Shown piece by piece: positions 2,476-27,225 of a stretch of DNA of 64,000 nt. The position numbers and the translations under genes are program-made. Source of the DNA: a virus; the IMG/VR virus record IMGVR_UViG_3300009788_000087; one strand, 5' to 3'. The notes under the pieces were generated by a model. The model was not told the DNA's origin, ran no database searches, and saw only the letters and a program-made list of their open reading frames with translations. The first letter of the stretch is position 1; each line of letters starts with the position of its first letter.

Positions 2476-2534
2476 AGAGGCAATAAAGAGGGATTCTGCG
2501 GACTGTTGACTGTAGGATCCCTCTATTATCTCCT
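2476..2534 (+). terminator. long stem-loop directly after the copy-1 stop
   Basis: AGAGGGATTC (2487-2496) pairs with GGATCCCTCT (2515-2524), with extendable flanks. Confidence 0.5.
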
Positions 2535-2575
2535 CTTCCACTGACAGTTCATTCCTCTTCACAGATCGGAGAACT

Positions 2576-2740
2576 ATGACCAAGAAAGATAAGCTACTGC
2601 ACGACATGTACATCTTCCTCGAGGCGGTTGTCGAGGACTGCGGGTACTCCGGCGGGCTGAAGATCGATGTTGGCACTACCAAAGAAGCCGACGTTGTCAC
2701 GCTCGAAAGCATCAGGAAACGAGTCGCAGCAGACGTATAA
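2576..2740 (+). CDS. hypothetical protein, 54 aa
   Basis: SD GGAG; MTKKDKLLHDMYIFLEAVVEDCG; hand-translated. Confidence 0.6.
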   Translation: MTKKDKLLHDMYIFLEAVVEDCGYSGGLKIDVGTTKEADVVTLESIRKRVAADV

Positions 2741-2856
2741 CGGGACTTTGTCATTTGTCCCTTGAGCAATTGGATACTTTTCGACGCTCAAATACCATGA
2801 AAGGACAGTAGAGAACAAATCACAGAAGTGACTGTATCCCAAAAGGAGGCCGAAAC

Positions 2857-3042
2857 ATGAAAGAATGCTACTACTGGGAACTGTTCTGGCAGCTGCACGG
2901 TCGATGCTACGAACTTGATCTGCACCCCGACGGAGTCGAAGAGGTCTTCACGGCCCTGCAGGAGGATGAACCACTGTGTGGGGAGTGTGATGAGTGTGTG
3001 GCACAGTTCGCGGCTAGCAATGGAGGTCTTCTACTGAACTAG
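2857..3042 (+). CDS. hypothetical protein
   Basis: SD AGGAGG; ORF track. Confidence 0.65.
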   Translation: MKECYYWELFWQLHGRCYELDLHPDGVEEVFTALQEDEPLCGECDECVAQFAASNGGLLLN

Positions 3043-3083
3043 GACTGATACCACGTTACTCTTAACAGAGCTGAAAGGACCAC

Positions 3084-3341
3084 ATGAAGTGTACTACCAA
3101 GAAGACTGAAGAGACCAAGTTCGCACCAGTCACAGTCGAATTAACCTTTGAGACCCAGCAGGAGCTGGATCGGTGGGCCAGCCTGCTGAACTCGGGTCGA
3201 CTGTCCATCTTCCTATCTGGTAGCGAGCTGCGACAGGTGCTGACAGATGCTGGTGGCGACCAGAGCAGGCACAACTTCAATACACTGTTCAACCTCATGT
3301 ACAATACGAAATACTGGTCGGATGGTGGCCCGATAGTCTGA
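3084..3341 (+). CDS. hypothetical protein
   Basis: SD AAGGA; ORF track. Confidence 0.65.
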   Translation: MKCTTKKTEETKFAPVTVELTFETQQELDRWASLLNSGRLSIFLSGSELRQVLTDAGGDQSRHNFNTLFNLMYNTKYWSDGGPIV

Positions 3342-3595
3342 GCTGATTCTGCTACTCTTTGCTCTGAAGGCCATCACGACTGCTGTCTGGGCCTAGAGTG
3401 GCAGTTCTGAGCTGATACTGGTGTGGTTTAGGGTTGCGCGGTTGTATGGATCTCCTGCCCCCGCGCTGTAGATATCTTGTCTACATTACTTGGATAAGAT
3501 TGCTGTATAGAAAGGAACTGTGTAGAGATGGTAGAAACAGCAAACATCATGTCTCTTGTCAGTCGCTTGTTGTCACTTCAAGAGTCTATCGGTGA

Positions 3596-3817
3596 GTGGA
3601 AAGCAAGAGTCCTGCTGGCATCCTGGACATTGAAACTCTGAAGAAAGGAGACCTTGTGAAGAAGACCTATGAGTTGTCCGACGCTGAGTTTGAAGTCATC
3701 CTCTACTGCATCCACTACACTGTCGAGCGTGATGATGAGGGAGTGCGCTCCTCTGATCCTGTTGCTATCCAGCGCACGAAGCTGATCGACCAGGTCCTCA
3801 ACGCTCTCAGCCACTGA
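3596..3817 (+). CDS. hypothetical protein
   Basis: ORF track; co-oriented with neighbours. Confidence 0.55.
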   Translation: MESKSPAGILDIETLKKGDLVKKTYELSDAEFEVILYCIHYTVERDDEGVRSSDPVAIQRTKLIDQVLNALSH

Positions 3818-3950
3818 AAGGGAAACCGATGCATCTCTTCTTTTACAACCTCGCAGAATGGGCTAGCTGGCATCACCTTGAACTCTACCATTCTCCTCAT
3901 GGCCCTCGTCGTGGATGGTGTTGTGGTATGTGCAAAGGAAGGAATCTGTC

Positions 3951-4115
3951 ATGACTTATACCCTCAAACTGTCGTACGAAGTTCAGGCCAGTTCCGAGCA
4001 GGAAGCAATCACGAAGCTTGGCAAGTGGTCAGCCAGCACCCTTAACCAGTGGGCTCGCAAGGAAATCCTTTCTGGTGTCAAGGAAGTTGACCTTGAGATT
4101 GGAGTTAAGAAATAA
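3951..4115 (+). CDS. hypothetical protein
   Basis: MTYTLKLSYEV start with SD AAGGA; ATGA overlap with a 41-aa ORF at 3829..3954. Confidence 0.6.
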   Translation: MTYTLKLSYEVQASSEQEAITKLGKWSASTLNQWARKEILSGVKEVDLEIGVKK

Positions 4116-4172
4116 AGACCAGACCTCTTAGACCTCTCTTCTTTCTACACACCACGAAAGGCAACCAAGACA

Positions 4173-4478
4173 ATGACGAAATCCATCTACGATTATACAG
4201 ACAGTGAGCTGGCCGTTGCGCTGGAGATCATCACTCGCAGCACGTCCTTCGATGACATCAACATCATTGATGAGGTCTGCTCCCGGTTGCGGAAGACGGA
4301 GGCAACGGAGGAGATAACGTTCGTCGGCGAGCTCAGGAATCTGTTCGAGAAGAGGGGCAAGATCCAGGCCATCAAGCACCACCGGACCATGACCAAGGTT
4401 GGACTGAAAGACTCGAAGGAGGCTGTCGAAAAGCTGGCTGAAGAGGGCGGCTGGGTGCTGCCTCCCTCGCGCTGGTAA
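4173..4478 (+). CDS. protein with ribosomal L7/L12 C-terminal-like domain
   Basis: KIQAIKHHRTMTKVGLKDSKEAVEKL matches the bL12 CTD pattern KIxAIKxxRxxTGxGLKEAKxxVE. Confidence 0.75.
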   Translation: MTKSIYDYTDSELAVALEIITRSTSFDDINIIDEVCSRLRKTEATEEITFVGELRNLFEKRGKIQAIKHHRTMTKVGLKDSKEAVEKLAEEGGWVLPPSRW

Positions 4479-4511
4479 AGAAAGGAAACTGAGTAGGAGA
4501 GTTCTCTTTCT

Positions 4512-4544
4512 AGAGCCCACATTTTCTGCCCCGGTGTGGGCTCT
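4512..4544 (+). terminator. intergenic stem-loop
   Basis: Perfect 10-bp inverted repeat AGAGCCCACA / TGTGGGCTCT. Confidence 0.5.
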
Positions 4545-4662
4545 GCTTAGAGCATTTTCTTCCTAGAATACCCCAAGATTTGGTATCATAGTTAACCCTT
4601 TTCCATACTTTTTACCATCCACAAAGATACTGTTGTATCAAACCATGAAAGGAGACAAGAGC

Positions 4663-4875
4663 ATGGAGGTCTATAGGATCCAATACACGGGGCTCTTCCG
4701 CAATGAGGCCGGCGTCTGCATCGTATTGGCAGAATCGAAGGAAGAAGCTGAACACATGTTCTTTGCCAATCCGGGAACACCGAAGCATGAGAAGGAGAAC
4801 AAGATACTATCCATCGAGTGGCTGTGTGATGCACGACACCGACGAGTGGTCTACAACGACGACGGAAACTACTAG
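4663..4875 (+). CDS. hypothetical protein
   Basis: SD AGGAG; MEVYRIQYTG. Confidence 0.65.
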   Translation: MEVYRIQYTGLFRNEAGVCIVLAESKEEAEHMFFANPGTPKHEKENKILSIEWLCDARHRRVVYNDDGNY

Positions 4876-4914
4876 GAAAGGAACAACAAAGATTCATCCC
4901 GAGTTCATTAAGTT

Positions 4915-4944
4915 GTATACTTCGATTCGACTAAGTGGTATACT
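4915..4944 (+). promoter_or_regulatory. phage promoter GTATAC-N18-TATACT
   Basis: Extended -10 TGGTATACT; upstream of paralogue copy 2. Confidence 0.6.
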
Positions 4945-5003
4945 ATAATTCAAGGTGCCAATAATGACACCAAGAAACTCAAACTCAAGCGAGGAGCTAA
5001 CAA

Positions 5004-5651
5004 GTGTCTGATAACAACACCGAAACCACCACCACGACCACCGAAACCCCAAAGAACGACCCGCGCAAGGTTACCGTCGATGCAGTCCTCGACATGTGCC
5101 GCGAGCTCGGTTGTGAGGTCGTCGAGCTGAAGTCCTTCCACAAGGTCACGGCTCTCAACTACAACAAGAAGAGCCTGTACGTGGGCAAGGCCAAAAAGCA
5201 GATGACCCGCCTGGATGTCAGCGGCTTCGAGCCCGAGGAGCACGAAGCCATCACGTCGATGACCGAGGAAGAGGCCAAAAGCCTGAAGCTCGGTGCAGTG
5301 CGGGCCCAGATCCTTCCCAAGGAAATCCGTGACGAGGACTGTGACGTCCTGGAAGCTGTTCGAACCTGCATCCGTGGTCTGCTCGCCGAGGAGGAGGGCT
5401 TCAAGCTCGGTGCTCGCGGTCAGAAGGACGAGGTAGCTGAGACCACTGATGGTGAGACGGAGCAGCCGGAGGAGGAGACCGAAGAGGTCGAGGCCACTGA
5501 GACCGAGGAGGAGCAGTCGGAAGAGGAGACCGAGGAAGTCGAAGCGCCCGGGCCGTGTGGAACCGCGGTCGAGGCTTCCGATGAGGAGCTTGACGGCGAC
5601 AATTCACTCTACGACCTCGACGATGATGAGCAGGACTACGCCACTGCGTAG
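5004..5651 (+). CDS. uncharacterised paralogue family, copy 2, with acidic C-terminal tail
   Basis: FHKV...LYVGKAK..RLDVSGF...MTEEEAKSLKLGAVRAQ; last about 70 aa are Glu/Asp-rich; SD GAGGAG. Confidence 0.85.
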   Translation: MSDNNTETTTTTTETPKNDPRKVTVDAVLDMCRELGCEVVELKSFHKVTALNYNKKSLYVGKAKKQMTRLDVSGFEPEEHEAITSMTEEEAKSLKLGAVRAQILPKEIRDEDCDVLEAVRTCIRGLLAEEEGFKLGARGQKDEVAETTDGETEQPEEETEEVEATETEEEQSEEETEEVEAPGPCGTAVEASDEELDGDNSLYDLDDDEQDYATA

Positions 5652-5653
5652 CT

Positions 5654-5745
5654 GAAGAGAGGATATCGAGGGAGTCTACGTCACCTGGGATCGAGGGATC
5701 GATTCAAATCAATATGTCGTAGACTCCCTTTCTTATCCCCTTTTC
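5654..5745 (+). terminator. large stem-loop after copy 2
   Basis: Perfect 12-bp inverted repeat AGGGAGTCTACG (5669-5680) / CGTAGACTCCCT (5718-5729) plus an outer imperfect stem. Confidence 0.55.
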
Positions 5746-5775
5746 GAGTTCAACAACAGTGAAAGGAACAAGAGC

Positions 5776-6228
5776 ATGTCAAAGAATCCGATCATTAACA
5801 CGAAGCTTACACGAACAGAGATTATTGATCTTGTTATCCAAGAAACTCTAGATAAAGTAACCGAACGCCTTGACGAGATTGGTAAGCAGACCAAGTCACT
5901 TAAGAGACTTGGTGGTGTTGACTTGGTTCAACTCGCGCAGGCCGGACGAAATGGGTGGGCCGATCCTTCTTGGGATAATAGTAAAGTTACGATCACGTTT
6001 GACGTGAGCCCATCACAGTGGCCCGTATGTAAGGAGCTTAATGAACTAAAAGATGAACAGAACGAGCTTCATCAGGTACAAAGTGCTCTTCATGATCGTC
6101 GGACTGCTAGATTGAAGATTCTGAAGGAGTCACTCGAAAAGACAGAAGATGGACAGGAGCTTCTTGGTCAGCTTAAGACGTTCTCCCTTACAGTTGGCGC
6201 GAAACTGATGTTGGCGGCTGCAAAGTGA
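5776..6228 (+). CDS. hypothetical protein (coiled-coil rich)
   Basis: SD AAGGA; 150 aa. Confidence 0.75.
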   Translation: MSKNPIINTKLTRTEIIDLVIQETLDKVTERLDEIGKQTKSLKRLGGVDLVQLAQAGRNGWADPSWDNSKVTITFDVSPSQWPVCKELNELKDEQNELHQVQSALHDRRTARLKILKESLEKTEDGQELLGQLKTFSLTVGAKLMLAAAK

Positions 6229-6503
6229 AAATAACGATCATTGGTCAGTTACGCGAGCGCTTCGAAAAAAGAACATTCACAGGTGAAGAATTAAGAGATG
6301 CGTACAAAGAATTTGGAGGTGCATGGCATGGTCATCAAACAGTGTATACTATGACGTGGGATTTACCTATGAAGCTGGTCGAAAACCACGCTCCAAGAAA
6401 AAGTCCGTACTCAGAGAAAAACGTATTCAAGCTCGGTCCAATGCCTGAAAAGACTAAGACCGTTCATTCTTCTTGGCACCATCCACTTTGGGATAACTTT
6501 TAA
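6225..6503 (+). CDS. hypothetical protein
   Basis: GTGA overlap with the previous gene. Confidence 0.65.
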   Translation: MKITIIGQLRERFEKRTFTGEELRDAYKEFGGAWHGHQTVYTMTWDLPMKLVENHAPRKSPYSEKNVFKLGPMPEKTKTVHSSWHHPLWDNF

Positions 6504-6796
6504 GGAACTAATCATGATGTCGAAACAAGCTACTTGGACTTTGATTGGCACTGCTGCATACATTCTGGCCACCATCGAATTCGTCATGGTGTTCTGTTCA
6601 TGAGCTCCAAGGCTGCAAGACGACAACGGTCATTCAAGATGAGGGAGGACTATCGCAAGAGGCAAGCAGAAAGAATCGTCTGTAGCTGTGGAAGTGTGTT
6701 ACGAGAAGGTGGACGTGATTGGCCTGGAGCTGTGTCGACCAAGACACAGGTACTCTGCTTTTGCGGCAAGCTCACACTCTTTTAGGAGGAACGAAG

Positions 6797-7084
6797 ATGC
6801 CGGCATGTTCAAAATTCTATGATGCTGATAAGCGAGGAAGGTGCGACTGGTGCGGTTACTCGGACGACGAGCATCCGACCAGAAAGTGGGCCAATCTCTA
6901 CTTGGATCATGACAATTGCCACGTTTTCATGGCCACCGACAACCACACGGAAGGACAAAGTGGCATTACCAGGAATAATGTCGAGCAGCTGGCTCAAGCG
7001 TTGATCGATGAGTATGCATATACTGACGTCAACATCTACGACATCACCCACCGCAAAACCGTAAGGAAAGGACTCAAAACATGA
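6797..7084 (+). CDS. hypothetical protein
   Basis: SD AGGAGG; MPACSKFYDADKRGRCDWCG. Confidence 0.65.
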   Translation: MPACSKFYDADKRGRCDWCGYSDDEHPTRKWANLYLDHDNCHVFMATDNHTEGQSGITRNNVEQLAQALIDEYAYTDVNIYDITHRKTVRKGLKT

Positions 7085-7257
7085 AACCATTCAACAGTCT
7101 CAAGAAACCAACTCGTACCCGCAAGAAGACCAAGGCAAAGTCAGGAGGCGCCGGTCACTGTATCTGCAGCGCATGTGGAGATGAAGCATCTGCCCCTGTT
7201 ACCGCAACTCACCGCCACTGCAAGTCATCGCAGAAGGGAGTCTGGAAAGCAGCGTAA
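7081..7257 (+). CDS. 58-aa basic Zn-ribbon protein
   Basis: MKPFNSLKKPTRTRKK...HCICSACG...HRHCK; ATGA overlap; hand-translated. Confidence 0.6.
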   Translation: MKPFNSLKKPTRTRKKTKAKSGGAGHCICSACGDEASAPVTATHRHCKSSQKGVWKAA

Positions 7258-7258
7258 C

Positions 7259-7319
7259 GCCGAAACCCTCTTTGGAGGGTCCGTTCGGAATGGTTCCCGG
7301 ACGCTGATGATGGCAGACC
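7259..7319 (+). ncRNA. type II hammerhead ribozyme (candidate)
   Basis: gcc-GAAA-ccctc(tttg)gaggg-TC-cgttcgg(aatggttc)ccggacg-CTGATGA-t-ggc; complete core, GUC cleavage triplet ending at 7281, intergenic. Confidence 0.8.
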
Positions 7320-7338
7320 TGGAAAGAAAGGAGCTAGG

Positions 7339-7539
7339 ATGAAGTTCAAACGCAATCAGAAACTGATACTTGTCAGCCCGCTGAGTGCAGGAGAAGAAGT
7401 CAAGTATGTGAAGAAACATCCATCAGCTTGCGGTAATCCGGCGCCTCGACCGTTTTACATCATCGTAAAACAAGCCTGTGGCCATCGCATGCTGATCGAT
7501 TACCGACATACTGAGGAAGGAAGAGGCAATGAAGGTTGA
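7339..7539 (+). CDS. hypothetical protein (SH3-like small beta domain possible)
   Basis: SD AAGGAG; directly downstream of the ribozyme. Confidence 0.65.
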   Translation: MKFKRNQKLILVSPLSAGEEVKYVKKHPSACGNPAPRPFYIIVKQACGHRMLIDYRHTEEGRGNEG

Positions 7540-7762
7540 ACTTGAACCGCTAAGCAAAGAGTCGGCCGAGCAGATCACCGATGTTGGATTCTATTGTCGC
7601 CAGTGTGATGGTGCGGTCATCAAAACTGATGACTACAGCACTGGTCGATTCTTCATCGCTGCTGGTCATGTCGTCGTGCCAAGACAAGATGACTATGTCG
7701 GTATACTCTTTGCAGTCTGCTGTGACTGCCTGAAAGGATCCAATGAAGACACGCAAGTTTGA
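7529..7762 (+). CDS. hypothetical Cys-containing protein
   Basis: CRQC...CCDC; overlaps neighbours. Confidence 0.6.
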   Translation: MKVELEPLSKESAEQITDVGFYCRQCDGAVIKTDDYSTGRFFIAAGHVVVPRQDDYVGILFAVCCDCLKGSNEDTQV

Positions 7763-7979
7763 GTCGAAGGCTGATTGGACATGCCCCGTCCACGGTATTG
7801 AGGTCAGTCACAAGATTCGCACTCGGTTGGACGACCATGGCAAGTATAAGTATGCTGGTGACTACTACGGATGTCCTAGCTACAGTGAGTGTGGGTACTA
7901 CATCACCCCGAGTGGACGCGTGAAAGTGATCGAGGACTCCGAGATCGCTTCCATTCTCTCTTCCCTCAACAAGGAGTAG
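7743..7979 (+). CDS. Zn-ribbon protein (topoisomerase-type C4 motif)
   Basis: CPVH...YYGCPSYSECGY. Confidence 0.6.
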   Translation: MKTRKFESKADWTCPVHGIEVSHKIRTRLDDHGKYKYAGDYYGCPSYSECGYYITPSGRVKVIEDSEIASILSSLNKE

Positions 7980-8134
7980 GACATGAGGTTGCTGTTCCTA
8001 ATCATTCTCTTTGCCCTCAGTGGCTGCAAGGACAACAGACGAAACCACTGCAAAGAGAACAAGCTGGACAACAATCGCGGTAGGAATGCTTCCCATCACC
8101 ACGACTCAAAACACGACTAAAAAAGGACAAGATC

Positions 8135-8404
8135 ATGCAAGAGATTCCGTATGGAGACCAAGCTGCTGCTGTCGACGAAGCCATTGCCACCTTCCCCAAG
8201 ATCTTTGGACTTCGCAAGTTTCCAGGCATGAAGTTCCACATTGTCAGGAGCCAGTCATTCTATTCTCCTGGTTATAGCCATGACGGTGGTTCTGCTCCTC
8301 CCTCCATTCAGCTGTATACCTTCATCGTCGATGAGGATGGCAAGGACCAGGCTTTCGCTCGAGGCTCTGTCGAGGAGCTGCGTGGACAGGTGGTGGAGCT
8401 GTGA
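8135..8404 (+). CDS. hypothetical protein
   Basis: ORF track; SD AAGGA. Confidence 0.6.
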   Translation: MQEIPYGDQAAAVDEAIATFPKIFGLRKFPGMKFHIVRSQSFYSPGYSHDGGSAPPSIQLYTFIVDEDGKDQAFARGSVEELRGQVVEL

Positions 8405-8685
8405 AGCTAACTACCAAAGACATTCATGCGTTGATCGAGTTTGCTGATGAAGGCGACTATCACGACGGTTGCACGGCTTGGGGTCCGAAGTTCGATGCAA
8501 TCATGCAAGTAGCAAGAAGAGTTCGTGAAGATGCTCGCAAGGAGCTTCGTGAATCGTACGATGACTGTGTAGTATGTCTTGGGACACGAGGTGGTGTCAA
8601 GGGCAATGAGAATGTTATCAATGATGTCATCATGTGTGACCACTGCACGGTAGATCAGATTAAGAACCTGAAAGGAGATGACTAA
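8401..8685 (+). CDS. hypothetical protein with C-terminal Cys pairs
   Basis: CVVC...CDHC; GTGA overlap. Confidence 0.6.
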   Translation: MKLTTKDIHALIEFADEGDYHDGCTAWGPKFDAIMQVARRVREDARKELRESYDDCVVCLGTRGGVKGNENVINDVIMCDHCTVDQIKNLKGDD

Positions 8686-8688
8686 GAA

Positions 8689-8880
8689 ATGAAGTTTACT
8701 CGACACGTCACACTCGTTGCGTTGTATGTGGAAGCCTGTGCTGCTGGCAAGATTCTTAGTGCTGGTGGTTGGAGCAGCATGAGTAAGGAATGTAAAGCAA
8801 TAAAGTTAGAATTGACAAATCTTCTACATCGCTACGAAAAACAACTGCTTGTCGATATCGACTCAGAAGAGCCCAAATGA
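8689..8880 (+). CDS. hypothetical protein
   Basis: ORF track; tightly packed. Confidence 0.55.
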   Translation: MKFTRHVTLVALYVEACAAGKILSAGGWSSMSKECKAIKLELTNLLHRYEKQLLVDIDSEEPK

Positions 8881-9194
8881 AAACACAGCAGTACTTCGTT
8901 ACCATCGCACGACTGCGAGACGATCATCCAGACGGGCGCTGGCTCTGTCGCGGACCGTTCGGTGAGGATGACACATTCGGAGAGTATTTACATACATCCG
9001 AGGATCCTAAGGAGGATAATCCCATCTTTCTTGGTGGCGTCGAGGATGTAGTCAGAGCAATCGACAGCATACCAGGTGGTGCCAATGACAGTTCAGACGT
9101 TGTAAGAACTGAGTGGACTGTGGACTCAACTGAACTGCCTGATGCATGGATTGCACACGTCACTTACTTCATCAAAGAACCGGAGACGGACTAG
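8877..9194 (+). CDS. hypothetical protein
   Basis: ATGA overlap. Confidence 0.65.
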   Translation: MKTQQYFVTIARLRDDHPDGRWLCRGPFGEDDTFGEYLHTSEDPKEDNPIFLGGVEDVVRAIDSIPGGANDSSDVVRTEWTVDSTELPDAWIAHVTYFIKEPETD

Positions 9195-9418
9195 TGATCA
9201 CATACAAGATTCGAATCAGTGGAAGCAATGACTTCGTTTGTGACATCTATGCGGATGACGAGACCTGTGATCCACCAGGAAGCGTCTCAATTGTGGAAGG
9301 GTGGGATAATCCTGCCGCACTCATATTCCTTTCGAAGGAGGGAGCAGAAGCTGCAGCAGAAGAGGTCCAAGACATCGAAGGTTTCCACTGTGTGGTGGAA
9401 GAGGTAACATTGATCTGA
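9194..9418 (+). CDS. hypothetical acidic protein
   Basis: GTG start overlaps the previous TAG; SD GGAG. Confidence 0.6.
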   Translation: MITYKIRISGSNDFVCDIYADDETCDPPGSVSIVEGWDNPAALIFLSKEGAEAAAEEVQDIEGFHCVVEEVTLI

Positions 9419-9660
9419 TGACTTGCTTCATTGTCATGATGAGAGATTTCGATGGTCCACCCTATATTTATGCAGTTATCCTCGAACGAGATCGCATGGA
9501 AGCATGGGTTCGAGAATACGAATCAAAATGGATTGACGAGGACTTTTGGGTTGAAGAACACCACGTCATTTTTCCATCGCTAGGAGCATAGCTTCGAATA
9601 GAGCCTGCCCTCCTGGAGGGCAGCATCCCAGACTCCTTTCCATTGTATATTCCATAAAAG

Positions 9661-9690
9661 TTGTACAAATGGAAAGGGGTGTGGTATGCT
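9661..9690 (+). promoter_or_regulatory. phage promoter TTGTAC-N18-TATGCT
   Basis: Extended -10 TGG; a 10-bp inverted repeat (9635-9644 / 9668-9677) brackets the -35 element. Confidence 0.7.
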
Positions 9691-9741
9691 AATAATATAC
9701 GGTGATTTGCGCCCTCACAGTTCTTGGAAAGGCAGGTGTCC

Positions 9742-10038
9742 ATGTACGCAGTAACCTTTGTTTATGAAGGCGGTGTCTGCACGACGCTGTACGAGAAACT
9801 CGAGGACATGAAAGTCGAGGATATCTCATTCGGTCATTGGATGGACAGGTTGTACAACGTCTCAGGTCCAGATGGCGGGTATGGTGATTGGCACAAGGAG
9901 CTCAGTCTTCGCGAAGCCTTTGATGCACTCTTCGATGGAGAGGTCGAAGGTTTCTGTGCAGAAGAAGTTAACAAAGATGCCAGCTGCTACGTTGTGAAAG
10001 TGCATGACGAATACCTACCGCTGCAAGGAGAAAACTGA
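9742..10038 (+). CDS. hypothetical protein
   Basis: MYAVTFVYEGG; first gene after the promoter. Confidence 0.65.
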   Translation: MYAVTFVYEGGVCTTLYEKLEDMKVEDISFGHWMDRLYNVSGPDGGYGDWHKELSLREAFDALFDGEVEGFCAEEVNKDASCYVVKVHDEYLPLQGEN

Positions 10039-10268
10039 TGTCTAAGACATACCCCGATGATGAGTGTCATGTGCATGGAAATGGTGATGACTGTCATCCT
10101 GCACTCTTCCCAATCCTAGACAAATATGTCTGCTTCGATTGCATCTTTGAAGGAATGGTTGAGATTGTGGGTATGGACTACGATTACGCTGAAGATCCAG
10201 ATGAATTCTGGTCCACATTCCGCAAAGGTGTAGAGTCAGCTATCGAGGAGGAAAAGAAGAATGACTGA
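10038..10268 (+). CDS. hypothetical acidic protein
   Basis: TGATG overlap; SD AGGAG. Confidence 0.6.
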   Translation: MSKTYPDDECHVHGNGDDCHPALFPILDKYVCFDCIFEGMVEIVGMDYDYAEDPDEFWSTFRKGVESAIEEEKKND

Positions 10269-10418
10269 ATTCACTGAATTAGAGCGTGTCTCTTTCAATC
10301 TCACTGATATCCTTGAGACTAAGCTGACGGACAACCAGCGTCATGTCATTCAGGAGGCAATCGAAGCCATTGATGAGGTAACTCAGTCGTGTCCTCCTCC
10401 GATGCCGGAAGGTTGTGG

Positions 10419-10691
10419 ATGAAACACTTTACCAAAGACCAAGTCGCCACAGTCAGTGGCATACTACGTGAACAGGCTGACCGCAGACGTCGAGGTCTCG
10501 TAGGTGCAGGAACAGGTGCGATGGTATGTGGCTGTCGCAAGGAAGGATCCTGCTCACTCTGTCGCCCAATCGAAGAGCTGGAAGAGATCATCGAGCTATG
10601 TGATGACAGGCTGTGGGAGATGGACAAGCATGGCATCTTCAGAGCATGGCGCAAGATCGGAAAACAACATCCGCTAGATAAAGGAAAGTGA
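10419..10691 (+). CDS. hypothetical protein
   Basis: MKHFTKDQ; CGC...CSLC. Confidence 0.55.
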   Translation: MKHFTKDQVATVSGILREQADRRRRGLVGAGTGAMVCGCRKEGSCSLCRPIEELEEIIELCDDRLWEMDKHGIFRAWRKIGKQHPLDKGK

Positions 10692-10694
10692 TCT

Positions 10695-11015
10695 ATGAAC
10701 TATCCACTGAAACTCAATGAAGTCAAGTTCGAAGCAGGCGGCGCCGTATGGCGAGCTCGTCTCATGGCAGAGATGCTTGACGAAAAAGACTGGTGTCAGT
10801 ATTCTGACGACAACGGAAAAACGTGGATGACGAGCGGACCGGAGTATGCGGGTGAGGTGAAGATCGACGCAGACTTCGGTGATGGCTGGGAAGAAGAGTT
10901 CTGGACATGTGAGCACAACTATGGATTCGATGACGATCACGTGCAGAATATCCTCGATGAAGGCATCAAGCAGTTCAAGAAGCATGGGTGTGGATCAGAC
11001 CCGGAGCCGTACTAA
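10695..11015 (+). CDS. hypothetical protein
   Basis: ORF track; SD AAGGA. Confidence 0.65.
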   Translation: MNYPLKLNEVKFEAGGAVWRARLMAEMLDEKDWCQYSDDNGKTWMTSGPEYAGEVKIDADFGDGWEEEFWTCEHNYGFDDDHVQNILDEGIKQFKKHGCGSDPEPY

Positions 11016-11028
11016 AGGAAGGAGAAAC

Positions 11029-11241
11029 ATGAATATCTACAAGTATCTCGAAGGTTGCATTGTTAACTGGGTTAGTCATGAACTATTGCTCTTCGAGTAT
11101 ACGAACAAACAGATTGAAGAAGCTGAAGAGGCGGGCTGGCTCATTCGTCTAGATGATGACGGAACTCTTGGTGTGGCACTCGGTGAAAACATCTACTACA
11201 TTCGCACAGCGCATGAGAGGCAGGTGTTGTGTAGTGGCTGA
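11029..11241 (+). CDS. hypothetical protein
   Basis: SD AAGGAG; MNIYKYLEG. Confidence 0.6.
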   Translation: MNIYKYLEGCIVNWVSHELLLFEYTNKQIEEAEEAGWLIRLDDDGTLGVALGENIYYIRTAHERQVLCSG

Positions 11242-11506
11242 CGAAATGTACCTGATAACTATCGAAGCATTCAACATAGACACACGTGACCCGTGGACAT
11301 ATGACGAATATCTCTTCAAACACCCTCGAGATGTCTGTAGGTTCCTCTACGCTCGCAAGTATAGACACTCGGAGCATGTGGTAGAAGACATGGTCGAGGA
11401 GCTAATGGAAGAAGGAGAATCACACGTACAGTGTAAGCTCAATGAAGGTGGCCCATTCTGTACCATTAGTCTCAACTTTCGTGGCATCGATTTCGAGGTG
11501 GTATAG
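11153..11506 (+). CDS. hypothetical protein (true start likely near 11234-11246)
   Basis: ORF track; overlaps the previous gene. Confidence 0.55.
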   Translation: MMTELLVWHSVKTSTTFAQRMRGRCCVVADEMYLITIEAFNIDTRDPWTYDEYLFKHPRDVCRFLYARKYRHSEHVVEDMVEELMEEGESHVQCKLNEGGPFCTISLNFRGIDFEVV

Positions 11507-11886
11507 TGGATAACTGTACCAAGTGTGGCCAGCCAAAGAACTATGTGGTTGGAGCATTCTACCTCTGTGGCTGTGATCCAAAGACAGAGACCACGAGTGC
11601 GCTCACTGGTCAGTGGTGGGAGGGCAAGCAATATGTCTTTGACGGTTGGCAAGACATATCAAGCAGGTATAAGCTACGTAATAACTTCGATGCTTATTTC
11701 AAGCTTCCGTCATGTGCGCTCACAGACAATCTATATTGGTTCGCGTTTCATCTCACTGCTGAGTGGGAGATTATTGATGTTAACGCGTATTCCATTGGCA
11801 CCGTAAAACATCCTGATTTTGTTGAACTTGAGCCAATCGGTCCACTCACCGACGACGAGATTCGTGGGTTTATGGAGCACAAATAA
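11506..11886 (+). CDS. hypothetical protein
   Basis: TAGTG overlap; N-terminal CxxC. Confidence 0.6.
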   Translation: MDNCTKCGQPKNYVVGAFYLCGCDPKTETTSALTGQWWEGKQYVFDGWQDISSRYKLRNNFDAYFKLPSCALTDNLYWFAFHLTAEWEIIDVNAYSIGTVKHPDFVELEPIGPLTDDEIRGFMEHK

Positions 11887-11941
11887 TGGACTTTGCATAC
11901 TTCTACTTTTTCTTCAACCACAGGAATAGGAACTATAACAA

Positions 11942-12118
11942 ATGATTACAGCGCTCTTCGTAATCGCAATCATTATTCTCTTCTTTTTCATAGCTGGTGT
12001 GGTAATAGCAGGTATCGCTGATGAAAGTGATCCCCTCGTGTTCGGCATCGCTGGTGCTGCGCTCTTTGGAATAGTCGAAGCAATCCTCTGCATCGTGCAC
12101 TTCGCGCTATCACTGTAG
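11942..12118 (+). CDS. small two-helix membrane protein
   Basis: MITALFVIAIIILFFFIAGVVIAG...; SD AGGA; hand-translated. Confidence 0.55.
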   Translation: MITALFVIAIIILFFFIAGVVIAGIADESDPLVFGIAGAALFGIVEAILCIVHFALSL

Positions 12119-12127
12119 CCATCATAG

Positions 12128-12157
12128 TTGTACACTTGGTAAAAAGTGTGATATAGT
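12128..12157 (+). promoter_or_regulatory. phage promoter TTGTAC-N18-TATAGT
   Basis: TTGTAC acttggtaaaaagtgtga TATAGT. Confidence 0.7.
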
Positions 12158-12181
12158 GAAACTATAATGGAAGGAGAATTT

Positions 12182-12406
12182 ATGGATGAACTCAGTTTCC
12201 TGACCATGGAAGAGAAACAACAGGTTAGAAACTACATTGAAGGTGATCCAGAGTCAATCACTTTCGAAGACGGTCCTATTTGGGAGAAACTCTACAATCA
12301 CTACGTGTTCAAGACAGGTGAGATGCCTCATGGCACTGCCAAAGCACGAACCGGTGACCCACATGAGTGGATCTTTGATCGTCTCGAACAAATTCTGGAG
12401 GCATAA
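12182..12406 (+). CDS. hypothetical protein
   Basis: SD AAGGAG; MDELSFLT. Confidence 0.65.
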   Translation: MDELSFLTMEEKQQVRNYIEGDPESITFEDGPIWEKLYNHYVFKTGEMPHGTAKARTGDPHEWIFDRLEQILEA

Positions 12407-12498
12407 GTGAAGACCAAGGAGATTCCACCCGTTCCTCGTTGCAAGGACTGTGGCGAGACTGTCATTTTCTTTCATAACTGCCCGAAGAAAGGAAAGAA

Positions 12499-13122
12499 AT
12501 GAGGATCATCGCAGGCAAAGTGGACTGGTACCAAGAGTATGCAAACCGTCCGCAGCTTAGACTATTTGTTGATGAAATCCCCAACCGTGATGACATGGTC
12601 TACACGAAGAAGGATGGACTATATTTCAGTGAGCTCGACGGACTAGTCAGTTTCTTCAGCTATGACCGACCAGGTCAGGGTTTCAGTGGCAGTGGTTATA
12701 CATTGGATATGGATGATGGAACGATTGTGGTACTGTCGGGTCCGTGGTCGTCACGTGCTGGCTGCATGAATGGCGCTGGGTTCACTCCCTGTCTCGACGT
12801 GTCCCTCACTGACGACGAGAGGGCCTGGGCAAAGGGCTATACCTTCCTCTCTTCCACTGTGACAAAGGAGCTTGTCGACGAGGCTCGTGACAGGATAGAG
12901 ATTGGTGAATACTTCGTTCGCAGTTGGAATGGGAAAGAGAGAGGCGACAGATTTTACTTCCCACCTGGCTCAAAGTTCACGCTTGTGAGTCGAAACCGCA
13001 AGTCTAGAGGCACCGACATGTCTGCACAGCAGAGCAACAGCATGCCATCGTCAGGTGATGAGGAAACTGTCTATGAGCCAGCAGTCGAGCTTTACGGTGG
13101 AGAGATCTGGACAAAGGAGTAG
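12499..13122 (+). CDS. hypothetical phage protein
   Basis: 207 aa; SD AAGGA. Confidence 0.75.
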   Translation: MRIIAGKVDWYQEYANRPQLRLFVDEIPNRDDMVYTKKDGLYFSELDGLVSFFSYDRPGQGFSGSGYTLDMDDGTIVVLSGPWSSRAGCMNGAGFTPCLDVSLTDDERAWAKGYTFLSSTVTKELVDEARDRIEIGEYFVRSWNGKERGDRFYFPPGSKFTLVSRNRKSRGTDMSAQQSNSMPSSGDEETVYEPAVELYGGEIWTKE

Positions 13123-19093: not shown

Positions 19094-20122
19094 ATGTCGA
19101 AAGCAGACTACTGTGTATTCATTGGGAGGTTCCAACCCTTCCACAACGGGCACTTAGAAGTAATAAAGAATGCCCTTAAAGACGAGGCTGAAAAGCTTAT
19201 CATCGTAGTTGGTAGTCATCGTGTACCGCGATCGTTAAAGAATCCGTGGTCATACGAAGAGCGCCGCGTGATGATTGAGCTGGCTCTACCGGCAGACCTG
19301 CTAGGTAGAACTACGATCGTTCCAGCTCGTGACTACATGTATGACAACACAATGTGGTTGACTGGTATTCAGAATGTAGTTACGCAGACAATTAACTGCA
19401 GGTCAGCAACTGTCAAGCTGATCGGTCATTTCAAGGATGACAGCTCTTTTTATCTCAGGCTCTTTCCACAGTGGAAGCTTGTTGCAGAACCGAATCATTT
19501 CGGTATTACTTCAACTATGATCAGGGAAGAAATATTCGAGAACATAGGGTTGTTCGTCACCAACATGCCTGAAAAGGTTTTGAATGAGGTTCTTGCATGG
19601 ACGGGGACTCAATCATGTGAAGAACTACGTCGTGAGTGGAAGTTCCTCAAGGACTACAAGAAGAAGTGGGCGAGTGCTCCCTTTCCTCCTGTTTTTGTTA
19701 CCACCGATGCAGTTATCGTGCAGGCAGGACATGTCCTTCTTGTCCGAAGGGGTTTCAATCCAGGCAAAGGACGGTATGCACTGCCTGGTGGATTCCTCCA
19801 AGGAAACAAACGGATCATTGATTCTTGCCTCGCTGAAGTCAAGGAAGAAACAAATATTCTGTTCCCGAAAGATCAATTAAAGAAGTGTCTGAAAGATATA
19901 CATGTCTTTGACCACCCTCTCAGAGATCAGCGCGGTAGGACCATAACACACGCACACTACTTTGAAATTGATAGACTTGGTCCCCTTCCAGCCGTTGCCG
20001 GAGGAGACGACGCCGCTGAAGCATTGTGGCTTCCGCTCTGTGACCTTGCACTGGTCGAGGAGAACTTCTTCTCAGACCATATTCACATCATCAATTACTT
20101 TATCAATGGAGTCGGACGATGA
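19094..20122 (+). CDS. nadM: bifunctional NMN adenylyltransferase / ADP-ribose pyrophosphatase (NadM-Nudix)
   Basis: [10 protein letters not shown] (HxGH), KNPWSYEER, Nudix box PGG...[21 protein letters not shown]. Confidence 0.95.
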
Positions 20123-20298
20123 ATTACGTAGTCGATATCAATGGCATCAAGTTTCCATACAAAACTCGAGAAGATGGCTTCATCATCCAAATGCCAAGTG
20201 GCAATAAGATGTTCATTAGCTATGAATGCAAGGGAAGCTATGGTATTAGATCATGTCTAATCAATAAGTTTAGAGAAGCACAGCTACGACAATTGTAG
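20119..20298 (+). CDS. hypothetical protein, 59 aa
   Basis: ATGA overlap; [14 protein letters not shown]; hand-translated. Confidence 0.55.
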   Translation: MNYVVDINGIKFPYKTREDGFIIQMPSGNKMFISYECKGSYGIRSCLINKFREAQLRQL

Positions 20299-20328
20299 GT
20301 CGATAGGGAATCGACTGAATAGGAGAAA

Positions 20329-21759
20329 ATGATGGACAACAAGATCATAAGTCTCATTTTAGACACAGACAGTTACAAATTCAGCCACTGGAAACAGTAT
20401 CCACCGAACACCACAGCAATGTACTCCTACCTGGAGAGCCGCGGAGGCAAGTTCGAGAAGACTGTGTTCTTTGGATTGCAGTACTACCTAAAGAAATACC
20501 TATCCACATCGATCAAGATGAGTGATGTATTCGAAGCAAAGAAATTTGCAGACGCGCACGGTGTTCCTTTCAATACGGACGGTTGGAAACACATAGTTCT
20601 TAACCACGACGGCTACCTGCCAGTCCGCATAAAAGCAGTGCCTGAAGGTTCTGTCATCCCGACGAGTAACATTCTCCTCAGTGTGGAGAGCACAGATCCA
20701 AAGTGTTTCTGGGTTGTGTCTTGGATCGAGACTCTGCTTGTCCGACTGTGGTATCCGATCACGGTCGCCACTCTCTCTTACCACTGCAAGCAGGCAATCA
20801 AATATTACCTTGATTTAACAGCAGATGATCCAAATGCTGAGCTTCCATTCAAGCTTCATGACTTTGGCAGTCGTGGTGTCTCTTCACAGGAGTCCGCCAT
20901 GATCGGTGGTGCAGCACACCTCCTCAACTTCATGGGTTCTGATACAGTTGCTGGAATCTGGATGGCCAATGAATACTATGACTGTGACATGGCTGGTTTC
21001 AGTGTTCCAGCAACTGAGCATTCTACCATGACGATGTGGGGCAAAGACCATGAAGTCGATGCTTACCGTAACATGCTCGAGCAGTATAAGGACCAACCGA
21101 TCATGGCTGTCGTGTCTGATAGCTGGGACATTTGGCATGCTGCGAGAGCTCTCTGGGGAGGTGAGCTAAGGAGTAAGGTCATGGAATATGAGGGGACTCT
21201 CGTCGTCAGACCTGACTCTGGAGACCCGCCCAAAGTTGTCGTCAAGTTGATTAAGCTTCTTGCTGCTAGGTTTGGTTCCACGATTAACTCAAAGGGATAT
21301 GCAGTTCTAAACAACAATGTACGTGTCCTTCAAGGAGACGGTATCAATATCGATAGCCTAAAAGATATTCTCTTGGCTGTTGAAGTAGCTGGATATTCTA
21401 CTACGAATATTGCATTTGGTATGGGTGGTGGACTCCTTCAGCAGGTTAACCGTGATACGCAGAAGTTTGCATTCAAGTGCAGCTGGGCTAAAGTGAATGG
21501 TGAGAGTGTCGATGTATACAAGGATCCCGTCACTGATAAGGGCAAGCGCTCCAAACGTGGGCGACTCGACTTGGGAGTTTTTCCTGGATATCCCGAAGAC
21601 GCTGTGAAAACAGTGTTAGAGGGTGGGTGTGAGGTATCACTGCTTCAAACGGTATACGAGGACGGAAAAATTCTCTCGAGCGAAAAGTTCTCTGAAGTAC
21701 GAACGAGAACTGACAGCCCGTACGGTGCTTACAAGGGATGGACTGACAAGAGCGTCTAA
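20329..21759 (+). CDS. nadV: nicotinamide phosphoribosyltransferase (NAMPT)
   Basis: LDTDSYKFSH, LHDFGSRG, PATEHS, VVRPDSGDP, QGDG, FGMGGGLLQ, RDTQKFAFK. Confidence 0.95.
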   Translation: MMDNKIISLILDTDSYKFSHWKQYPPNTTAMYSYLESRGGKFEKTVFFGLQYYLKKYLSTSIKMSDVFEAKKFADAHGVPFNTDGWKHIVLNHDGYLPVRIKAVPEGSVIPTSNILLSVESTDPKCFWVVSWIETLLVRLWYPITVATLSYHCKQAIKYYLDLTADDPNAELPFKLHDFGSRGVSSQESAMIGGAAHLLNFMGSDTVAGIWMANEYYDCDMAGFSVPATEHSTMTMWGKDHEVDAYRNMLEQYKDQPIMAVVSDSWDIWHAARALWGGELRSKVMEYEGTLVVRPDSGDPPKVVVKLIKLLAARFGSTINSKGYAVLNNNVRVLQGDGINIDSLKDILLAVEVAGYSTTNIAFGMGGGLLQQVNRDTQKFAFKCSWAKVNGESVDVYKDPVTDKGKRSKRGRLDLGVFPGYPEDAVKTVLEGGCEVSLLQTVYEDGKILSSEKFSEVRTRTDSPYGAYKGWTDKSV

Positions 21760-24566: not shown

Positions 24567-25772
24567 ATGACGATATCATATCTCAAAACAAAAGACGGCT
24601 CAACGATTAAAGAGATTCCACTATGGACTGATGTCAAGACCGTTGAGTCTCAAGCACTGGACCAGCTACGAAACATCGCTAGCCTTCCACGTGTAGTGCG
24701 TATGGCAGTCATGCCTGACGTGCACTTAGGAAAGGGCGCAACTGTAGGTAGTGTTATCGCCACTCGAGGTGCCATCTCTCCCGCTGCAGTGGGAGTTGAC
24801 ATTGGTTGTGGAATGGGTGCAGTTAAGACCAACCTTGATGTCGACAAGGTCACGCGTCATGCGTCTACACTGCGATCTGAGATGGAGTCCGCCATTCCGG
24901 TCGGTTTCAACTCACATGATACGTGCGTCATCAACTCTCTCCCCGATGGAGAGATCAAGAAGACTGCACTCGAGCTGCTGGAGGAGTTTTACACTCTCTC
25001 AAAGTCAGTACAAGGCAGCCTCTCCCGTGCTGCGAACCAGCTTGGCACGCTCGGGGGTGGTAACCACTTTATCGAATGCAATGTGGACACCGACGGAGCT
25101 GTGTGGCTCATGCTCCACAGTGGCAGCCGTTGGATTGGAAATGCTCTCGCACAGGAGCACATGAAGACCGCCATGAAGCTTGAACACAATGTCGGGATTG
25201 TTGATAAGGCACTCTCTTCATTCCTTGCCGGCACTCCTGAAATGGCTGCTTACCGTCGTGACCTGTATTGGGCACAGCGATTTGCTATGATTAACCGATG
25301 GATCATGATGCACCTCTACCAAGAGTCAGTTCGCAAGTTCTTCCCAGGCATGAAGGTCGTGGAAGAGCCGGTGTGGTGTCATCACAACTACGTAGCAGAG
25401 GAGACACACTATGGAGAGAAACTCTTTGTCACCCGAAAAGGAGCTATTAACGCAGAGGTGGGAAAAATGGGGATTATTCCTGGAGCTATGGGACGATGCT
25501 CGTACATCGTGCGTGGGAAGGGCTGTGAAGAAGCTCTTAACTCCGCTCCTCATGGTGCTGGCCGTAGGATGTCGAGGTCGAAAGCGAAAAAACAATTCAC
25601 AGTCAAAGACTTGATCGAACAGACTTCAGGCACTGAGTGTCGCAAAGACAAGGGCGTCATCGATGAGATTCCTTCTTCATACAAGAACATTAAAGACGTC
25701 ATCCACTACAGTGCTGACCTCGTCGAGGTGATTGCTGAACTGCAGCCTGCTATTATCTGCGTGAAAGGATAG
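24567..25772 (+). CDS. rtcB: RtcB-family RNA ligase
   Basis: MPDVHLGKG, VGVDIGCG, LGTLGGGNHFIE, HSGSR, HHN, RKGA, HGAGR. Confidence 0.95.
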   Translation: MTISYLKTKDGSTIKEIPLWTDVKTVESQALDQLRNIASLPRVVRMAVMPDVHLGKGATVGSVIATRGAISPAAVGVDIGCGMGAVKTNLDVDKVTRHASTLRSEMESAIPVGFNSHDTCVINSLPDGEIKKTALELLEEFYTLSKSVQGSLSRAANQLGTLGGGNHFIECNVDTDGAVWLMLHSGSRWIGNALAQEHMKTAMKLEHNVGIVDKALSSFLAGTPEMAAYRRDLYWAQRFAMINRWIMMHLYQESVRKFFPGMKVVEEPVWCHHNYVAEETHYGEKLFVTRKGAINAEVGKMGIIPGAMGRCSYIVRGKGCEEALNSAPHGAGRRMSRSKAKKQFTVKDLIEQTSGTECRKDKGVIDEIPSSYKNIKDVIHYSADLVEVIAELQPAIICVKG

Positions 25773-26076: not shown

Positions 26077-27225
26077 GTGCCACTACATAAGAAACTATTC
26101 AAACTCAACAGTGATGGTAAGACCATCCAAATGTGGGAGATCTACTACGCTGTCGACAATAAATCTTACTGGACTGTGTCAGGCCAGCTCAAAGGAAAGA
26201 AGACCACATCATCTCCGACTGCTGTCAAGGCGAAGGTTAACCGCACACAGCTCGAGCAGGTTGTCCTTGAGATGGATGCGAAGGCGACCCTGAAAGAGCG
26301 AACGAGGTATGTCACTGACATTAAGCATGTCGGTGCCAAAGCAGAAGCTGCCCTTCCTGGTTACTCCGCAATGCTCGCCAAGAAATGGGAGAATCAGAAG
26401 AAGAAGATCAAGTTTCCATGTATTGTACAACCAAAGCTTGATGGTGTCCGCTGCCTAGCAACCAAGGACGGGCTCTTCACACGTGGGCGCAAACCGATCG
26501 AGGCATGCCAACACGTCCGCGATGAGCTTAAGCCATTCTTTGACGCACATCCCGAAGCGATGTTGGACGGTGAGCTCTACACTCATGAGTTCAAGGACGA
26601 TTTCGAGACCATCATCAAGGCGGTCAGGAAGTCTGGCAAGCATGCAACTGAGAAGGATTTCAAGCTACAGCGTAAAGTGCAGTACCACGTGTATGACTCA
26701 CCTCGAATTGATGGAATGACAGCGTCACAACCATTTGTTAATCGGTTCGCAAAAGTCACATCCCTATTACGCGGAATGCCCGACTGTATCCGAGTCGTTG
26801 AAACTATCCCTATTGACGACGAGTTTGCCTTGAGTGAGTGGCATGCTGAGTTCCTCATCAAGGGATATGAAGGTACGATGGTCCGTAATAGGGACATGCC
26901 ATATGAAGGAAAACGTAGCAACAATCTCCTCAAGATGAAGGAGTTTGATGATGACGAGTTTGAGATCGTTGATGTCCTCGAAGGCAGAGGAAAGCTTGTC
27001 GGACATGCTGCGAAGTTTGTGCTAAAGAATGCTGAAGGCACTGAATTTCGTGCCAAGCTTGAAGGATCACATGACAGGTTGAAATGGATCTATGAGAACC
27101 CGAGCTCAGTGATCGGAATGCTTTGTACTGTCATGTATCAAGGTTTGACAAACAAAGAGAATGTACCACGATTTCCCGTCGCGAAGAGCGTGCGTGGACT
27201 CAAGGACAGGAGCGATTGGTTGTGA
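26077..27225 (+). CDS. ATP-dependent DNA ligase
   Basis: QPKLDGVR, LDGELY, YHVYD, GYEGTMVR, LLKMKEF, C-terminal OB-fold PRFP. Confidence 0.93.
   Translation: MPLHKKLFKLNSDGKTIQMWEIYYAVDNKSYWTVSGQLKGKKTTSSPTAVKAKVNRTQLEQVVLEMDAKATLKERTRYVTDIKHVGAKAEAALPGYSAMLAKKWENQKKKIKFPCIVQPKLDGVRCLATKDGLFTRGRKPIEACQHVRDELKPFFDAHPEAMLDGELYTHEFKDDFETIIKAVRKSGKHATEKDFKLQRKVQYHVYDSPRIDGMTASQPFVNRFAKVTSLLRGMPDCIRVVETIPIDDEFALSEWHAEFLIKGYEGTMVRNRDMPYEGKRSNNLLKMKEFDDDEFEIVDVLEGRGKLVGHAAKFVLKNAEGTEFRAKLEGSHDRLKWIYENPSSVIGMLCTVMYQGLTNKENVPRFPVAKSVRGLKDRSDWL

Follow-up and report, generated by a model that had tools for sequence, protein, structure and literature searches.

A predicted type II hammerhead ribozyme between a stop codon and a Shine-Dalgarno sequence in a metagenomic jumbo phage

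Type II hammerhead ribozymes have been known in phages since 2011, when they were described from bacteria and (pro)phages (Rfam family RF02276, Hammerhead_II; Perreault et al. 2011, PMC3088659). These RNAs cleave themselves by transesterification, which yields a 2',3'-cyclic phosphate and a 5'-OH, and fast cleavage needs a pseudoknot; when the pseudoknot was cut from 6 to 4 bp, cleavage became about 20-fold slower (PMC3088659). For the ribozyme HHphage of the haloviruses HF1 and HF2, a 5' end was mapped no more than 3 nt from the cleavage site (PMC3088659). Processing of polycistronic RNA has been suggested as a role of hammerheads, and proof of it is awaited (PMC6765202). With the engineered insulator RiboJ, the amount of transcript was about 2-fold higher and that of protein 2-10-fold higher (Clifton et al. 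2018, PMC6206723).

The window analyzed here is a stretch of 64,000 nt (64 kb) from the IMG/VR virus record IMGVR_UViG_3300009788_000087, and all positions given without a contig name are counted from its first nucleotide. An earlier note, made from the letters of the sequence, had pointed to an intergenic type II hammerhead in this stretch and had proposed a search with the Rfam hammerhead models. When the whole window was compared by cmscan with all 4227 Rfam families, RF02276 matched positions 7258-7322 (+) with 54.5 bits (gathering score, 37; E, 1.8e-8) in an alignment spanning the full model (positions 1-66), and the proposed hammerhead was thereby recovered. This was the sole Rfam match above the gathering score within the 64 kb. 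No second ribozyme turned up in the window in a permissive Rfam scan (E up to 1), in which a sub-threshold match to mir-1 was dismissed as noise. Both sequence and structure establish the element as a member of the family, of which it is an additional high-scoring example. We consider it very likely, judging from the sequence, that positions 7259-7319 (+) encode a genuine type II hammerhead that would cleave itself after C7281 and separate two cistrons of a polycistronic mRNA.

The elements follow one another on the plus strand in the order stem II strand, GAAA, stem III hairpin, GUC, stem I hairpin, CUGAUGA and stem II strand; stems I and III are capped by loops and stem II is open to the flanks, which is the type II permutation. 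The first strand of stem II (GCC, 7259-7261, hammerhead positions 11.3-11.1) pairs with the second (GGC, 7312-7314, positions 10.1-10.3) through G7259-C7314, C7260-G7313 and C7261-G7312, as read from the sequence and the fold. It is followed by the core nucleotides G12, A13 and A14 (7262-7264; sequence and Rfam alignment) and by the stem III hairpin (7265-7280), which has a UUUG loop and consists of A7265-U7280 plus CCCUC (7266-7270) paired with GAGGG (7275-7279). The two strands of stem III, CCCTC and GAGGG in the DNA, had been correctly recognized in the earlier note, and only its count of 5 bp is to be corrected, to 6 bp, when the pair A15.1-U16.1 is included. The GUC triplet occupies 7279-7281, so that the scissile bond falls between C7281 and C7282; this predicted cleavage site (7281-7282), between C17 and N1.1, follows from the position in the Rfam alignment and established hammerhead chemistry. 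The stem I hairpin (7282-7303) has the loop AAUGGUUC and 7 bp including one G-U, formed by 7282-7288 with 7297-7303. Both hairpins are supported by the sequence, the Rfam alignment and the fold, and by covariation in the class of ribozymes described below.

Downstream of stem I, the core segment C3 U4 G5 A6 U7 G8 A9 (CUGAUGA, 7304-7310; sequence and Rfam) is separated from G10.1 by an extra U (7311) after A9 (A7310), which is plain in the sequence and treated by Rfam as an insert. The GAAA, GUC and CUGAUGA segments, the extra U, the 3-bp GCC/GGC stem II and the 7-bp stem I had all been located in the same places in the earlier note. The invariant hammerhead core is complete (CUGAUGA at 7304-7310, GAA at 7262-7264, the pair A7265-U7280, and C7281 as the required non-G), and the helix pairs adjacent to the core are intact, namely C7282-G7303 (1.1-2.1), G7312-C7261 (10.1-11.1) and A7265-U7280 (15.1-16.1), with U7311 bulged. 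The tertiary contact of type II ribozymes, a pseudoknot between loop I and the 3' tail, is also present. It is formed by GGUU in loop I (7292-7295) and GACC in the tail (7316-7319), the latter lying past one linker A (7315) after stem II, with the pairs G7292-C7319, G7293-C7318, U7294-A7317 and U7295-G7316. This pseudoknot, which had been suggested on complementarity, is borne out by the fold and by the class alignment, in which columns 55-58 covary with columns 83-80.

The design GCC-GAAAC / GUC / CUGAUGA-U-GGC was found in at least 113 IMG/VR contigs, for which the chance estimate is about 2. Among the matches listed, both free stems form at least 4 bp in 107 of 116 distinct copies, and in nearly all copies 4 or more consecutive bases of loop I are complementary to the tail, the tail segment setting in 0-1 nt past GGC. 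The RF02276 cut-off was reached in 37 of 40 source contigs versus 0 of 14 control genomes, and the number of copies per contig was mostly one or two in these 40, again among the matches listed. Sampled members of the class scored 38-67 bits with Rfam, and the score of the window ribozyme falls in the upper half of the class. With stem III and the core fixed as the query, 25 viral contigs were retrieved, all of them carrying unmistakable type II hammerheads that differed in stem I, stem II and pseudoknot; the CUGAUGA-U-GG form was present in 3 of the 25. Since at least 113 contigs carry the extra U, it is to be regarded as a common natural variant and not as a defect of the window copy. As far as their sequences tell, these elements constitute an abundant phage subclass of predicted hammerheads: stem II is a 3-bp GCC/GGC helix, a U is bulged out behind A9, a linker A is present, and loop I and the tail join in a pseudoknot of 4-6 bp.

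Denser arrangements were observed in other contigs. Five Hammerhead_II matches form a dense array in the 5.2-kb contig L105 (IMGVR_UViG_3300046452_000028), and three lie inside 0.9 kb of contig L010 (3416-4312), compared with the single copy in the window. A 60-kb viral contig (L051) with two type II hammerheads also contains a ROOL RNA (RF03087, 382 bits; 9696-10279 (+)) directly past a run of tRNA genes. A metagenome scan for an identical loop I and pseudoknot retrieved three ribozymes with unrelated stems in unrelated contigs, and these were accordingly rejected as orthologues.

For the analysis of covariation, 103 ribozymes of the shared design, with the window sequence first, were aligned from among the matches listed (alignment A1). 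A sequence was admitted if stems I and III had 5 or more pairs close to the core, and pairing in these two stems is therefore partly due to selection; GCC of stem II is invariant by construction, and the pseudoknot was not a criterion. RNAalifold recovered stems I, II and III from A1, and 10 of the 13 pairs showed compensatory changes. When the hammerhead structure with its pseudoknot was supplied, 91.1% of the cells were paired versus 69.8% in shuffles, and the covariation score was 0.544 versus 0.156 in shuffles, a value reached by 0 of 500 shuffles; controls with slid partners gave scores of 0.06-0.11. Compensatory changes on both sides were found in 7/7 stem I pairs and 5/5 pseudoknot pairs, and the pseudoknot columns were paired in 82.8% of the cells, though unselected. 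In the window copy, pairs are formed at four of the five pseudoknot positions of the class, including one G-U, and the fifth (columns 54-84) is a U-U mismatch. The covariation of the helices is supported on a design subclass, not on orthologues. The intergenic type II hammerhead originally put forward is thus backed by a score well over the gathering value and by covarying helices in over 100 ribozymes that share its exact design.

The window comes from a metagenomic jumbo phage of about 196 kb, the longest contig with the same protein being 196,492 nt. Its large ORFs are of phage type and include a DnaE-like polymerase, a DnaB-like helicase, ribonucleotide reductase, NAMPT, a NadR-like adenylyltransferase, RtcB and DNA ligase. 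The NadR-like adenylyltransferase/Nudix protein adjoins NAMPT (phrog_448, E 1e-161) at 19094-21759 (+), a NAD salvage pair as in some large phages. RtcB (24567-25772 (+)), an ATP-dependent DNA ligase (26077-27225 (+)) and an RNA-ligase-family protein (28149-29138 (+)) are encoded close together and resemble an RNA repair or end-joining set. No nucleotide match of the ribozyme region to GenBank phages was obtained with megablast or blastn, and the closest DnaE of a GenBank phage was only 33% identical (tblastn). Searches of IMG/VR for related loci with both flanking ORFs and DnaE returned the query itself only, and so did a search of 5.8 billion proteins for homologues of the 150-aa and 66-aa neighbours of the ribozyme. 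The 95-aa upstream neighbour, subjected to an exhaustive HMMER search, matched itself and, weakly and partially, two far longer proteins (E 5e-5 and 1e-4), and no homologue was found among them. The other contig with the locus, from an ENA metagenome, is base-for-base identical over 6.4 kb.

The nested hammerhead fold has a free energy of -22.7 kcal/mol, compared with a minimum free energy (MFE) of -23.6 kcal/mol for 7258-7326, the contribution of the pseudoknot being uncounted; it is less than 1 kcal/mol from the MFE even without the pseudoknot or the tertiary core. The z-score of the MFE of this region is -0.99, which is unremarkable, and the case therefore rests on the covariance-model match and not on folding energy. 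In the MFE structure of a longer transcript, a rival helix was found between 7240-7245 and 7297-7302, in which GUCUGG, from the last part of the upstream ORF, pairs with CCGGAC in the 3' strand of stem I. Because one strand of this competitor lies inside the upstream ORF, ribosomes translating that ORF would clear the helix.

An extra nucleotide between A9 and the first stem II pair is reportedly tolerated by a natural and active ribozyme, the (+) hammerhead of Chrysanthemum chlorotic mottle viroid (CChMVd). The viroid study concerned, De la Pena and Flores 2001, is cited in PMC2632901. That the extra U and the minimal 4-bp pseudoknot make the window element too slow, leaving a catalytically crippled, hammerhead-shaped relic that serves as a neutral spacer or a pair of hairpins, seems very unlikely to us: more than 100 natural ribozymes that vary independently and keep covarying helices invariably have the extra U, and the window copy combines intact invariant core bases with a score in the upper half of its class. 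What the relic reading can draw on is the pseudoknot, which with 4 bp, one wobble and the mismatched class position 54-84 stands at the short end of the range, the roughly 20-fold loss of rate upon pseudoknot shortening (PMC3088659), and the occurrence of a single ribozyme copy in 64 kb without an orthologue showing purifying selection. An active hammerhead thus remains the preferred reading of the element.

The position of the ribozyme relative to its neighbours is compact. Upstream lies a 58-aa orphan ORF (7081-7257 (+)), which is in the ORF list, is called as a gene in the database copy and has no Pfam match; its TAA (7255-7257) ends one base before stem II. Downstream, a Shine-Dalgarno sequence (AAGGAG, 7328-7333 (+)) precedes a 66-aa orphan ORF (7339-7539 (+)), likewise listed and called as a gene in the database copy, for which the protein collection held its own sequence only. 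The ATG of this ORF, at 7339, is 24 nt past stem II. The sequence thus agrees with the location first described, between the TAA of 7081-7257 and the Shine-Dalgarno sequence of the 7339 gene. The ribozyme is surrounded by a same-strand series of small, mostly overlapping orphan ORFs without Pfam matches, and in a scan of 2500-12500 for sigma-70 promoters and terminators, sites were no more frequent than in shuffles; an early operon, as the earlier note had called it, is a plausible setting.

A similar placement was common in the class, with a stop codon next to stem II on the upstream side and a Shine-Dalgarno sequence and start codon 15-40 nt downstream. When ORFs of at least 40 codons were considered, about 88 of 104 class members among the matches listed had an upstream stop codon at a distance of -1 to +5 nt from the G that opens stem II. 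In 81 of 107 class members, also among the matches listed, an ORF of 40 codons or more began no more than 40 nt past the 3' strand of stem II with a start codon preceded by a Shine-Dalgarno sequence, compared with 11.6% at random positions of the same contigs. As a null explanation, the flush fit between stop codon and Shine-Dalgarno sequence would reflect genome compaction in phages.

The element is flanked on the plus strand by an 8-nt direct repeat, CTGGAAAG, one copy of which lies within the end of the upstream ORF (7242-7249) and the other at 7319-7326. The repeat had been noticed before and is indeed there, and no meaning could be demonstrated for it. An exact word of at least 8 nt is common to the 30-nt flanks at 100 of 9120 window positions (1.1%), and a flanking repeat of at least 8 nt was found, among the matches listed, in 6 of 123 class members versus 1.9% in mismatched controls. 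This is a weak excess at best, so the repeat is no class feature, and flanking direct repeats were rejected as such.

These observations bear on a reading in which the ribozyme is mainly the payload of a small mobile cassette (about 77 nt) whose insertion between two translationally coupled genes duplicated 8 nt of the target, with mRNA processing as a side effect or a means of toleration. The flanking CTGGAAAG, an event of about 1% per site, would fit such an insertion, as would the slight enrichment of flanking repeats of at least 8 nt in the class and the recurrence of the design between unrelated genes of many unrelated phages. Moreover, if 7250-7326 (77 nt, one repeat plus the ribozyme) is removed, the upstream ORF ends with TAG one base before the ATG and has the Shine-Dalgarno sequence inside its 3' end, and this predicted empty-site junction (...CTGGAAAGAAAGGAGCTAGGATG) resembles the tight neighbouring junctions of the operon. 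We nevertheless hold this reading to be very unlikely, as 117 of the 123 class members among the matches listed have no repeat of at least 8 nt, and an in-frame stop codon in the 13 nt before the ATG would arise by chance in about 1 in 5 cases (estimate). We also know of no transposition mechanism for lone hammerheads in phages. On the same grounds it is unlikely that the unit of about 77 nt, ribozyme and one CTGGAAAG, is a mobile intercistronic cassette that entered a formerly overlapping stop/Shine-Dalgarno/start junction with an 8-nt target duplication, and that hammerheads of the uniform design have spread horizontally among gene junctions and are not inherited regulatory elements.

In four other contigs (L130, L092, L019 and L105), direct repeats of 8-10 nt flank hammerheads and copy the Shine-Dalgarno or start region (e.g., GGAGGAAAAT in L130). 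Such repeats in a few class members hint at occasional insertion with duplication.

If the element is the active type II hammerhead that we favour, the transcribed RNA would fold and be cut between C7281 and C7282 by internal transesterification, as expected from the chemistry of the family. The 5' product would extend to 24 nt past the stop codon, with the stem III hairpin at its end and a 2',3'-cyclic phosphate as its terminal group. The 3' product would carry a 5'-OH directly where the stem I hairpin starts, and the Shine-Dalgarno sequence and the 66-aa gene would lie behind this hairpin. Since the ribozyme is placed flush between the stop codon and the ribosome-binding site, cleavage would leave a hairpin at both new RNA ends. 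A 5'-OH is a poor entry point for RNases that depend on a 5'-monophosphate. The two cistrons would become separate mRNAs with hairpin-protected ends, and their stability and translation would be uncoupled, as with the engineered RiboJ insulator; uncoupling of the two cistrons is the likely outcome of cleavage. To our knowledge, a benefit of cleavage is unproven in any phage hammerhead. Splitting of the polycistronic mRNA together with a stabilized 5'-OH product, as the earlier note had envisaged, would agree with the standard hypothesis in the literature (PMC3088659; PMC6765202).

The ligase RtcB joins 2',3'-cyclic phosphate and 5'-OH ends, and its substrates include hammerhead products. It is hardly credible that the ribozyme acts with the RtcB of the phage (24567-25772) in such a way that its products are rejoined, spliced or circularized and not merely separated: a full-length RtcB (PF01139, 379.8 bits) and an RNA-ligase-family protein are encoded 17-21 kb downstream on the same strand, but RtcB is encoded in only 3 of 40 ribozyme-class contigs (2 of the 20 contigs with a completeness of 90% or more) among the matches listed, the window contains only one ribozyme and so offers no second cut site for splicing or circularizing, and spliced or circular products were undetected by Perreault et al. 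(PMC3088659). RtcB was rejected as an obligatory or general partner of the class on the same count of contigs.

The separation of two cistrons by an active type II hammerhead is therefore retained as the preferred reading of the locus. A clean, high-scoring type II hammerhead is added for a very divergent jumbo phage, and more than 100 phage hammerheads with an extra U after A9, lying flush between a stop codon and a ribosome-binding site, are now quantified. Knowledge of the family itself is unchanged; the geometry of the class gives a concrete form to the long-standing and unproven idea that phage hammerheads uncouple adjacent cistrons.

Among known systems, the CChMVd hammerhead mentioned above differs from the window ribozyme in being of type III, in having a loop-loop contact and an extra A instead of a U, and in serving rolling-circle replication. 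The type II hammerheads of bacteria and (pro)phages (RF02276; PMC3088659) have the same core, permutation, short stem II and pseudoknot between loop I and the 3' tail, and they are likewise intergenic, between same-strand phage genes. The window copy departs from the RF02276 model by the U inserted between A9 and G10.1, a variant that is frequent in viral contigs, and from the arrays stressed in 2011 (PMC3088659) by being single in 64 kb and by its host, an orphan jumbo phage. It resembles HHphage of HF1 and HF2 in that a hammerhead is located a few nt before a start codon, in the case of HHphage in an early polycistronic transcript; HHphage has insertions near C3 and in the vicinity of stem I, is salt-dependent and belongs to an archaeal virus (PMC3088659). 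RiboJ, an engineered satellite-RNA hammerhead with an added hairpin, likewise stands immediately before the ribosome-binding site, and its cleavage strips off the preceding sequence context, so that the mRNA starts with a structured leader bearing a 5'-OH (PMC6206723); this likeness is a functional analogy only, with no bearing on family membership, which for the window ribozyme is given by its shared features with the type II hammerheads of phages.
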